DNA of 20,098 nucleotides from a virus (Duplodnaviria; Heunggongvirae; Uroviricota; Caudoviricetes), in the IMG/VR virus record IMGVR_UViG_2534681674_000022, positions 1-20,098 of that record, one strand, 5' to 3'. The position numbers and the translations under genes were made by a program. This document shows positions 6,207-7,223 of the stretch, in pieces (position 1 is the first letter of the stretch; the number at the start of each line of letters is the position of its first letter). Below the pieces are notes generated by a model, which saw only the letters and a program-made list of their open reading frames with translations, searched no databases and was not told where the DNA came from.

Positions 6207-6374
6207 TCAAGCATTATGCAGGCTGTTTCTTTTTATCACCGGCCACAGCAATACCACAATGCCGCAGACCAGCACCCCATCCGCCAGCACCGACATGATT
6301 CTGCTGGTGAAATCCACCATCACCACCAGAAACAGCAGGAGTGCAGCCACAGCCAGGCGCAGTTTTACCGTCAC
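6207..6374 (-). CDS. Small hydrophobic protein, about 55 aa, two predicted transmembrane helices, translationally coupled to the TerB-like gene
   Basis: GTG start overlaps the TerB-like stop (GTGA). Translation VTVKLRLAVAALLLFLVVMVDFTSRIMSVLADGVLVCGIVVLLWPVIKRNSLHNA. Absent from the supplied ORF track because it is shorter than 60 codons. Confidence 0.4.
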   Translation of the reverse strand: MTVKLRLAVAALLLFLVVMVDFTSRIMSVLADGVLVCGIVVLLWPVIKRNSLHNA

Positions 6375-6802
6375 AGGTGATTCTCCAGACGAAGACCCAG
6401 AACACCGGCAATCTCTTCCAGCACCTTGCGCTCTTCCGGCTCAATTTCGCCGTCTGCCTCCGCAATGGCCACCGCCACATCCAGCACATCTTCCGCTTCA
6501 CGCGTATCGTGTTTCACATCCTCAATCTCGCGTAACGCGGCACGACGACCAATTTTAAAATTGGTATCCAGCTGACCGATAATAGTTGCGCTAATCGCAT
6601 TAATTTCCGAGGTAAACGCAGACAACGCAGGCTGATTACGTAAGACCTGTTCGATCTTCGCTTTCTCGGATGCCTCGCATTCACCATCTGCATAGGCCAC
6701 CAGGTATGCAGCGTTAATCACCGCCTGTGCCAGATCGCGTTTCTCAAACTTTTTAATTTCCGCTGCCGCTCTGCGGGTTTTCTTTTTGAAGATTCCAAAC
6801 AT
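6371..6802 (-). CDS. TerB-like (tellurite-resistance TerB fold) protein, 143 aa
   Basis: ATG at 6802 with AAGGA ribosome-binding site 8 nt upstream. Acidic helical repeats typical of the TerB family (AYLVAYADGECEASEKAKIEQVL and VAVAIAEADGEIEPEERKVLEEIAGVLGL). The longer track ORF from 6874 is probably an over-extension. Confidence 0.5.
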   Translation of the reverse strand: MFGIFKKKTRRAAAEIKKFEKRDLAQAVINAAYLVAYADGECEASEKAKIEQVLRNQPALSAFTSEINAISATIIGQLDTNFKIGRRAALREIEDVKHDTREAEDVLDVAVAIAEADGEIEPEERKVLEEIAGVLGLRLENHL

Positions 6803-6971
6803 CGTGACGTTCCTTTGGGTGGGTGAGCCAACGCCCGGGAGCGATCTGCCCACAGAGAAAGTCACACTGACCACTCCGTAAGCTCACCCCCGAAAGGCTC
6901 TGTGGTTGATATGCGCCGGGCGTGGCGCAGATACAAAAAAGGCCCGCCGAAGCGAGCCTGGAAAATAAGTG

Positions 6972-7048
6972 TGGCGCGTTGTAGTGGAGTCGAACCACTG
7001 ACCGATTGCTTAGAAGGCAATTGCTCTGTCCGACTGAGCTAACAACGC
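6972..7048 (-). tRNA. tRNA-Arg, anticodon UCU
   Basis: Manual cloverleaf fold: acceptor GCGTTGT/ACAACGC, anticodon loop CTTCTAA, T-loop TTCGACT, 3' CCA encoded. Confidence 0.8.
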
Positions 7049-7061
7049 ATGATGCTGATAA

Positions 7062-7138
7062 TGGACCGCCATCGGGGACTTGAACCCCGCGCAGCCAGCT
7101 TCGAAGGCTGGCGCTCTGTCCCGATGAGCTAATGGCGG
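7062..7138 (-). tRNA. tRNA-Arg, anticodon UCG
   Basis: Manual fold: acceptor CCGCCAT/ATGGCGG, anticodon stem CCAGC/GCTGG, loop CTTCGAA, T-loop TTCAAGT, 3' CCA encoded. Confidence 0.75.
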
Positions 7139-7147
7139 TATGTGATA

Positions 7148-7223
7148 TGGTGGCCCTTGCTGGATTTGAACCAGCGACCTGGCGATTATGAGTCGCTCGC
7201 TCTCACCACTGAGCTAAAGGGCC
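7148..7223 (-). tRNA. tRNA-Ile2/Met-type, anticodon CAU (ileX/ileZ-like)
   Basis: Manual fold: GGCCCTTTAGCTCAGTGGTGAGAGCG..CTCATAA..GGTTCAAATCC..AAGGGCCACCA, closely resembling E. coli ileX as I remember it. Confidence 0.8.

Follow-up and report, generated by a model that had tools for sequence, protein, structure and literature searches.

A terB-tciB gene pair with a conserved structured leader at the stx position of a decaying lambdoid prophage

In the late region of Stx2 phages, which carry the genes of a Shiga toxin (Stx), the toxin genes follow a block of three phage tRNA genes; in Stx2a_WGPS2 the order is ileZ-argN-argO, stx2A, stx2B and nanS-p. In Stx phages the transcription of genes at this position starts at pR', and the polymerase, modified by Q, passes the terminators. 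Phage P1 is annotated with tciA, tciB and tciC in the stretch from tRNA-Asn/Thr to tRNA-Ile2(CAT); the three genes stand downstream of the C1-controlled ban promoters, with ban beyond them, and carry the note 'by homology'. TerB has been described as a peripheral membrane protein of the amphitropic kind (PMC7823757), TerB domains are known from three membrane-linked defence systems, namely Shango, Bunzi and Dionysus (10.1101/2025.09.30.679545), and Iyer et al. proposed that the standalone Ter parts of jumbo phages act against superinfecting phages (PMC7824862). The window described here, a stretch of 20,098 nucleotides (nt) comprising positions 1 to 20,098 of the IMG/VR virus record IMGVR_UViG_2534681674_000022 (Caudoviricetes), carries a gene pair of this type, termed terB (tciA-type) and tciB below, at the position that stxAB holds in Stx phages. 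All coordinates are those of the window, and the cassette, the tRNAs, a small RNA (sRNA), nanS-p and an AraC-like gene are all located on its minus strand.

Homology among the window, the Stx2a phage, the Stx2k phage and PhiR49_2 spans the tRNAs and the hairpin behind them, breaks near 6924 and restarts at an STnc100-like element near 6200 (alignments A1 and A2, BLAST). The tRNA trio together with the following hairpin shares 94-95% identity with its counterpart in Stx2 phages, the ileZ-argN-argO block, and the hairpin, an intrinsic-terminator-like structure, is kept in the Stx2a, Stx2k and empty-slot phages (A1). The first tRNA, tRNA(CAT), is named tRNA-Ile by RefSeq in near-identical genomes and ileZ in Stx2 phages. 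In phiSTEC1575-Stx2k the AraC-like gene of the window, a small open reading frame (ORF) and the tRNAs (92% DNA identity, window 6924-8402) are followed by stx2AB. The slot of PhiR49_2 is empty, its tRNAs being followed almost at once by an STnc100-like element and a holin gene; in the Stx2a phage the same kind of element follows stx2B (A2). The STnc100 element is backbone and marks the right junction of the slot. The genes stx2AB and terB-tciB share one interval, with junctions at about 6924 and about 6200, as is supported at base-pair resolution, and the stx position of lambdoid prophages is a general cargo slot.

A preliminary description of this DNA had read, on the minus strand, tRNA-Ile(CAU), two tRNA-Arg genes, a TerB gene, a small membrane protein gene and nanS-p, and had taken the tRNA cluster to be homologous to the trio of Stx phages and the two-gene cassette to stand where stxAB stands. 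The order was borne out by ARAGORN, the ORFs and Pfam, the homology of the trio by the identity given above, and the replacement of stxAB by the same junctions in the Stx2a, Stx2k and empty-slot alignments. The gap of about 170 bp that it gave between tRNAs and TerB measures 169 nt from the last tRNA to the ATG at 6802. New relative to that description are the exact junctions and the census figures, and also three features that it lacked altogether: the sRNA, the nanS-p frameshift and the structured leader of terB.

In the intact relative from an O103:H2 genome the order is RusA, a Q-like DUF1133 gene, a small ORF, the AraC-like gene, the tRNAs, terB, tciB, nanS-p, holin, lysozyme, the spanin region and terminase. 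The terminator scan gave one terminator before the cassette and the next one after the sRNA, and a crude promoter scan detected no sigma-70 consensus between 6940 and 6802.

Two further slots have their own structure. Window 3885-6340, which takes in nanS-p, the sRNA and most of tciB, has a counterpart of 94.5% identity in phage 434, where an unrelated membrane protein of 247 amino acids (aa) is encoded upstream of tciB in place of TerB; as a hidden TerB analogue this protein was rejected (hhalign probability 0.1, no Pfam family). The slot of E. coli 806883-9-2019 (L222 1600-2340, 363-1337) holds tRNA-Ile, tRNA-Arg, an unrelated ORF of about 100 aa, the 3' half of tciB, an STnc100-like element, two TolA-like genes and holin. 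Slots with DUF3927 alone were considered as independent modules and dismissed, the tciB of L222 being a truncated scar of a recombination junction inside the gene. Judging from the slot structures of phage 434 and L222, recombination junctions inside tciB recur.

The pair is an already catalogued and very common phage module, tciA/tciB, and not an unusual cassette. PHROGs has an entry for each protein (phrog_632, 'tellurite resistance', and phrog_1470, 'TciB-like'), phage records use the names tciA and tciB, which are those of the P1 annotation, and the UniRef names are TciA/TerB-like and TciB/TerA-like. The exact TerB and TciB proteins were found on about 985 and 966 contigs, respectively. 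At least 80% of the coding cassette was present in 802 of 5,426 complete E. coli genomes, with 4,274 matching places (some of them partial); a positive genome has 4 of them in the median and 10 at most, and the genomes of enterohaemorrhagic E. coli (EHEC) have up to 10 such places each. Among the complete E. coli genomes sampled, more have the junction argO-terB (824) than argO-stx2A (599); no more than 1,894 have a junction that is empty or has a short insert.

A survey of 80 IMG/VR loci, in which TerB is 97-100% identical, revealed a TciB-like ORF 3' of terB in every locus (80/80). The STnc100 core motif was found 3' of tciB wherever the sequence suffices, usually with nanS-p next, and the AraC-like gene was present in only about 10 of the 80 loci. 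A strict link between the cassette and the tRNA trio was rejected, as about 30 of the loci have no tRNA within 700 nt and carry instead a Q-like gene, two small ORFs, a terminator and the leader. From these contexts it follows that the conserved unit is leader-terB-tciB beside the sRNA/nanS-p backbone, not the tRNA trio. The mobile unit consists of a structured leader of about 140 nt, terB and the tightly coupled tciB.

Outside the lambdoid group, tblastn gave 131 phage records with TerB relatives, from phages of Vibrio, Escherichia, Erwinia, Pseudomonas, Klebsiella and Salmonella. A DUF3927 gene lies within a few bases of the TerB stop in P1, P7, SJ46, N4-like Pollock, FSL SP-076, SP-058 and Shigella B2, as well as in Klebsiella temperate phages and in Erwinia and Salmonella jumbo phages. 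The N4-like and jumbo carriers are strictly lytic. In Pollock the early/middle region holds the pair, with the RNA polymerase gene on one side and N4 gp24-like genes on the other, and the cassettes of E. coli prophages and of Erwinia/Salmonella jumbo phages are 68-76% identical. It was also observed that terB-tciB lies within or beside tRNA clusters in four unrelated groups, namely lambdoid phages, P1 (L003), D6-like phages (PMC6799933) and jumbo phages (L009, L131-L133). In Vibrio phage K481 (L011 2019-4003) TerB is followed by an ORF of 144 aa and then by a membrane protein of 359 aa from the Na/Ca exchanger family (Pfam 3e-29); an exchanger of this kind two genes from TerB hints at a cation link.

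The TerB-like assignment of the preliminary description survived the profile search: the 143-aa product matches Pfam TerB (PF05099) with 60.2 bits, where the cut-off is 24.4 (E 2.9e-16), its residues 26-138 aligning to profile positions 2-109 of 118. It matches phrog_632 over its full length (1.7e-69), and its alignment with the solved structure of K. pneumoniae TerB (2JXU) also spans the full length (E 4.4e-8). The AlphaFold2 model (mean predicted local distance difference test, pLDDT, 86.5; predicted template modelling score, pTM, 0.81) has seven helices, and the top Foldseek matches in the PDB were 2H5N (probability 1.00, template modelling score, TM, 0.55-0.64) and 2OU3, the latter described as 'tellurite resistance protein of COG3793'; the modelled fold is all-helical, TerB-like and built of two repeats. 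Each repeat holds an acidic (A/S)DG...E motif (D39/E46 and D117/E124). All four residues are invariant in an alignment of seven phages (A5), and in a 20-sequence alignment (A9) E46, D117 and E124 are invariant and D39 nearly so (at least 90%). These motifs are proposed as a metal or ligand site. The first 22 residues form a basic tail with a net charge of +7, and the remainder has a net charge of -13; hydropathy analysis of TerB gave no hydrophobic or transmembrane segment. The start codon, ATG at 6802, is preceded by AAGGA, and terB is under purifying selection, the median ratio of nonsynonymous to synonymous substitution rates (dN/dS) being 0.041.

The 55-aa product of tciB matches DUF3927 (Pfam, 62.3 bits, 4.3e-17) and phrog_1470 (4e-30). 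It has two hydrophobic helices joined by a turn DFTSR, an invariant WP motif and basic tails at the N and C termini; by the positive-inside rule, applied to these tails, both ends are probably cytoplasmic. Its GTG start shares GTGA (6374-6371) with the TGA stop of terB, and a GGAG stands 8 nt upstream of the GTG; the reported overlap of the TerB stop with the start of a gene for a small two-helix membrane protein was thereby found to be correct. The median dN/dS of tciB is 0.175, again purifying selection. The two genes overlap or lie a few bases apart across phage families, down to 28% TerB identity. Functional coupling of terB and tciB is favoured on the basis of the overlaps, the constant neighbourhood in the surveyed loci, the occurrence of fusions and the purifying selection.

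Among the database homologues of TerB, two proteins (P0152, 197 aa, and P0214, 170 aa) are different read-through TerB-TciB fusions; no such fusion was present among 120 TciB homologues. In Pseudomonas phage AF (L010 2432-2653) an unannotated ORF of 73 aa with one helix begins on a GTGA that overlaps the TerB stop, and this ORF gave no DUF3927 match. The only ORF downstream (31 aa, 6214-6119), which overlaps the tciB stop, was considered as an equivalent of the third P1 gene, tciC, and rejected: it matches no PHROG, does not resemble P1 TciC and falls within the stretch matched by STnc100.

The leader of terB lies behind the tRNA block. Hairpin H1 (6929-6912, loop ACGCCC) contains the point near 6924 at which the homology to Stx phages stops, and an H1-like hairpin is also found upstream of stx2A (A1). 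Further downstream a long-range complementarity joins CCACAGAG (6905-6898) to CUCUGUGG (6857-6850), and an alternative nested stem consists of GAGCC/GGCUC plus UUCGGGGGUG/CGCUCCCGGG. The 5' strand carries a G tract (6891-6885); ACCCACCCAAAGGA (Shine-Dalgarno) and the ATG come after these elements. About 120 nt from the junction to the ATG are conserved as DNA in Erwinia and Salmonella jumbo phages, where the leader is likewise located 3' of a tRNA (tRNA-Cys). A coding function of the leader was rejected, as the reading frame of the conserved bases is not the same in E. coli as in Erwinia phages.

Pairing was assessed in 15 diverse leaders (several E. coli types, Franconibacter, three Pantoea species, Pseudescherichia and jumbo phages). 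In H1 both-sided changes occurred in 6 of 6 pairs. The CCACAGAG/CUCUGUGG helix was paired in 98% of alignment cells, with two compensatory pairs that are confined to the jumbo clade (CCGUAGAG/CUCUACGG), and the nested stem in 95-99%, chiefly via one-sided changes. Both fold models kept 85-88% of cells paired against 37-48% in slid controls, a comparison that draws on few independent lineages. The two models overlap or cross, which would be compatible with a switch or a pseudoknot. A covariance model built on the leader scored 159.5 bits at 6946-6800 of the window and 104-119 bits in jumbo phages, its matches being confined to positions preceding this TerB subclade; it gave no match in P1, Pollock, AF, K481 or 434, and no Rfam family matches the leader. 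The G run (6885-6891, GGGGGTG in the window) varies from 4 to 12 G across prophage copies (e.g., L014, L025, L026, L051 and L122), which could be real slipped-strand variation or a homopolymer assembly artefact.

The explanation considered best, with a probability of about 0.4, is that TerB and TciB form a Q-dependent inner-membrane module of the lytic phase that shields productive infection. In an intact prophage Q-modified RNA polymerase would read past the post-argO terminator and transcribe the pair with the late operon; given such Q-modified late transcription, the proteins would be made in lytic growth, like those of stx, and not in the quiet lysogen. TciB would form a hairpin in the inner membrane, its two ends facing the cytoplasm. 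Soluble TerB would reach the cytoplasmic face of the membrane via its polybasic, partly hydrophobic N-terminal tail and its acidic domain with the conserved ADG...E motifs, beside TciB or bound to it, and, because the genes overlap, both proteins would be produced in a fixed proportion. The complex would alter or monitor the state or the cations of the inner membrane of the infected cell, and the likeliest benefit to the phage would be a shield against superinfecting phages or against attacks that depolarise the membrane, such as colicins or host pore-forming defences. The link to membrane and cations draws on the basic TerB tail, the two hydrophobic helices and basic ends of TciB, the conserved acidic motifs of both TerB repeats, the exchanger gene of K481 and the published views of TerB and Ter parts cited at the outset. 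Expression in the lytic phase, as we infer it, is backed by the virulent carriers, the P1 position between the C1-controlled ban promoters and ban, the terminator upstream of the pair and the lack of a sigma-70 consensus in the scanned interval. Taken together this suggests a membrane module of lytic growth rather than a module of abortive infection or of benefit to the lysogen, and a membrane or stress-related role is plausible. A wider version is viewed as an outside chance: the leader, with its covarying hairpin and conserved loop and with two helices beside the ribosome-binding site that exclude each other or form a pseudoknot, would be a new cis-regulatory RNA that travels with terB-tciB between lambdoid and jumbo phages and switches the pair on by a signal of the infected cell (a cation or the processing of the tRNA transcript), and the pair would be a general lytic-phase device of many phage families, which seals or protects the inner membrane against superinfection or host pore-forming defences.

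Several points weigh against a lytic-phase membrane shield. The literature searches returned no functional experiment on phage TerB or TciB, P1 tciA, tciB and tciC were non-essential in a CRISPR interference (CRISPRi) screen (PMC10695390), and the function of phage TerB/Tci proteins is given by homology only and needs tests (PMC9603915, PMC6799933, PMC8421299). The TerB-TciB interaction, the membrane location, the metal binding and the Q-dependent transcription are all inferred. The promoter scan was crude, so that a weak or non-canonical promoter in the leader is possible, and the timing of expression is uneven, the pair having an early/middle position in N4-like phages but a late one in the window. 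As phage 434 has a full tciB and no TerB, TciB may function on its own, and the TerB-TciB fusions, if not tolerated natural fusions, may be sequencing errors.

Four other explanations were weighed. Lysogenic conversion, in which a pair expressed in the lysogen would give the host a partial Ter phenotype (resistance to tellurite and pore-forming colicins, inhibition of phages), is what the P1 gene names suggest. The homology of the TerB domain holds, both genes are under purifying selection, and a gain for the host would agree with the up to 10 matching places per EHEC genome and with copies that stay intact in decayed prophages such as the present one; yet strictly lytic carriers have no lysogen to benefit, no other ter gene is nearby (terZ, A, C, D, E and F were absent among the ORFs of the window and in the annotation of two near-identical genomes), and according to the authors of a phage paper terB alone is not expected to confer resistance (PMC8421299). 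As the P1 pair lies downstream of C1-controlled promoters and the pair of the window behind a terminator without a promoter consensus, expression in the lysogen is not favoured either, and this explanation is judged unlikely. A role in counter-defence is considered quite unlikely. The phage TerB would here mimic or titrate the TerB-based surveillance of the host (Ter, Shango, Bunzi, Dionysus) and so block the sensing of infection, which agrees with the sensor-like place of TerB domains in several validated defence systems, with the early/middle position of the pair in lytic phages, the usual place of counter-defence genes, and with the 68-76% identity between prophages and jumbo phages, a sign of recent exchange of the kind usual for accessory genes in an arms race. 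A decoy would have no obvious need for a dedicated membrane partner, though; the literature searches gave no anti-defence report on these genes, and among the PADLOC models (including Shango and Bunzi) TerB gave only a weak match to PDC-S48 (E 0.0035 over 35 residues) and TciB none.

The place of the lambdoid pair just upstream of the lysis genes, on the same late transcript, would also be suited to a control of lysis timing, in which a holin- or antiholin-like TciB, modulated by TerB, tunes the firing of the adjacent S-R-Rz cassette; with 55 aa, two transmembrane helices and charged ends TciB resembles class II holins. In P1, N4-like and jumbo phages, by contrast, the pair is away from the lysis genes, no holin family was matched in Pfam or PHROGs, and the lambdoid relatives already have a complete holin-endolysin-spanin set, which makes this role very improbable. 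The preliminary description had suggested a stress or abortive-infection-type module. As an abortive-infection or toxin-antitoxin-like system, TciB would be a membrane toxin restrained by TerB and freed on infection by another phage. Translational coupling of a small membrane protein to a soluble partner is in line with such a system, and TerB plus a pore-former is the make-up of Dionysus. Against it stand the read-through TerB-TciB fusions, which fit poorly with a released toxin, and the P1 and lambdoid positions, which point to repression in the lysogen, where abortive infection must be ready. Owing to the presence of the pair in virulent phages and the lack of a matching defence model it is the worst-fitting of the four, and it is given hardly any credence. 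The interpretation in the preliminary description is thus partly supported: the position in the slot holds, and the suggested role fits by half only.

Table 1. Features of the terB-tciB locus and its surroundings, in the order of the minus strand.
Feature	Position	Strand	Evidence and remarks
AraC/YdeO/GadX-like regulator	7965-7252	-	Pfam HTH_AraC; NCBIfam YdeO 4e-31, below its cut-off
tRNA(CAT), ileZ-type tRNA-Ile2	7223-7148	-	ARAGORN; Rfam tRNA 72.5 bits; first of trio, shared backbone
tRNA-Arg(tcg), argN-type, UCG anticodon	7138-7062	-	ARAGORN, Rfam; backbone
tRNA-Arg(tct), argO-type, UCU anticodon	7048-6972	-	ARAGORN, Rfam; backbone
Intrinsic-terminator-like hairpin and T run	6934-6959	-	Terminator scan; 8 pairs, 6 G-C; directly 3' of argO
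Conserved structured leader of terB	6946-6803	-	DNA-level conservation, pair counts, covariance model
terB/tciA-type gene, 143 aa	6802-6371	-	Pfam TerB, phrog_632, 2JXU, AlphaFold and Foldseek
tciB-type gene, 55 aa, DUF3927	6374-6207	-	Pfam, phrog_1470, alignment A8, hydropathy
STnc100/PasD-family prophage sRNA	6199-6023	-	Rfam RF02076, 104.7 bits against a gathering score of 47; model positions 1-206
Terminator-like hairpin (6005-5987) and T run 3' of the sRNA match	5979-6005	-	Terminator scan
nanS-p, DUF1737 and SASA sialate O-acetylesterase	5891-4042	-	Pfam

The neighbourhood of the cassette is, as in the closest genome, that of a prophage remnant, in which Q is lost, the lysis genes are cut by insertion sequences (IS) and nanS-p is frameshifted (Table 1). 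The gene directly upstream of the tRNAs is the AraC-like regulator, not Q; it may belong with the prophage regulators PatE/PsrA, which are reviewed in PMC10877973. Homology to the intact prophage stops near 8430, where an Ash/isrK/C4 fragment starts; the Q gene and the part upstream of it have therefore been replaced by a P4/P1-type immunity fragment. At window 8415-8822 (minus strand) a C4 antisense RNA (8664-8577, 83 bits) and an isrK RNA (8765-8689, 60.5 bits) were observed under an Ash-family ORF. Four ALIL frameshift pseudoknots (255-371, 2911-3027, 10436-10552 and 20038-20098) correspond to four IS3-family elements, those at 255-371 and 2911-3027 interrupting the lysis-gene region. Relative to the intact 616-aa gene of the closest genome, nanS-p has a deletion of 1 nt near 4540 and is split into ORFs of 455 and 157 aa, which reflects either a pseudogene or a sequencing error. 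The terB-tciB pair is intact here and identical to the majority allele. A hairpin CACCGGGAAGCACCCGGCACC was also noticed in P1 (L003 ~2440-2470), just upstream of tciA; it is a near-match to the STnc100 core hairpin CACCGGGAGGCACCCGGCACC, which in lambdoid phages is located 3' of tciB.

As a case of a catalogued module carried by a decaying prophage, the window is ordinary. The role of the pair, if found, would explain a widespread function kept under purifying selection in temperate, virulent and jumbo phages, and would give a first handle on standalone TerB domains, which are also present in several defence systems.

Among the described systems, the STnc100/PasD sRNAs, whose family relation is described in bioRxiv 10.64898/2026.05.13.724894, are a neighbour of the cassette, backbone rather than cargo, and the element of the window is located directly upstream of a sialate esterase gene, as described for pasD. 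The stxAB genes of Stx2 phages share the setting of terB-tciB: they are two tightly linked genes of the late transcript, flanked by ileZ-argN-argO with the terminator and an H1-like hairpin on one side and by an STnc100-like element on the other. The proteins are unrelated, a secreted AB5 toxin in one case and an intracellular membrane pair in the other, and the stx2 leader measures about 50 nt, whereas that of terB measures about 120 nt and is structured. SngA of Shango, BnzA of Bunzi and DinB of Dionysus (with the pore-former DinC) resemble the pair in combining a TerB-type domain with membrane proteins, for which membrane surveillance is proposed; the pair of the window differs in being without a helicase, ATPase or pore-forming-toxin partner and in being encoded by phages, including virulent ones, and not by host defence islands. 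With the TerB of terZABCDEF (IncHI2 plasmids, Klebsiella, 2JXU) the window protein has the full-length domain, the two-repeat helical fold and the acidic ADG...E motifs in common; its partner is instead a DUF3927 mini-protein, and its polybasic N-terminal tail is a feature of the phage subfamily. The tciAB(C) genes of P1, P7 and D6 differ in that P1 has a further gene that the window lacks, tciC, whose product has 35 aa and one transmembrane helix, and that the P1 pair is located near ban and the window pair in a lambdoid late region; the structured leader was not detected in P1. P1 TciA (141 aa) is a TerB-domain protein, 42% identical to the window TerB over its full length (E 8e-24), P1 TciB is a DUF3927 protein of 54 aa that begins at the tciA stop, and the P1 genes, which are non-essential, lie amid phage tRNA genes that include tRNA-Ile2(CAT).

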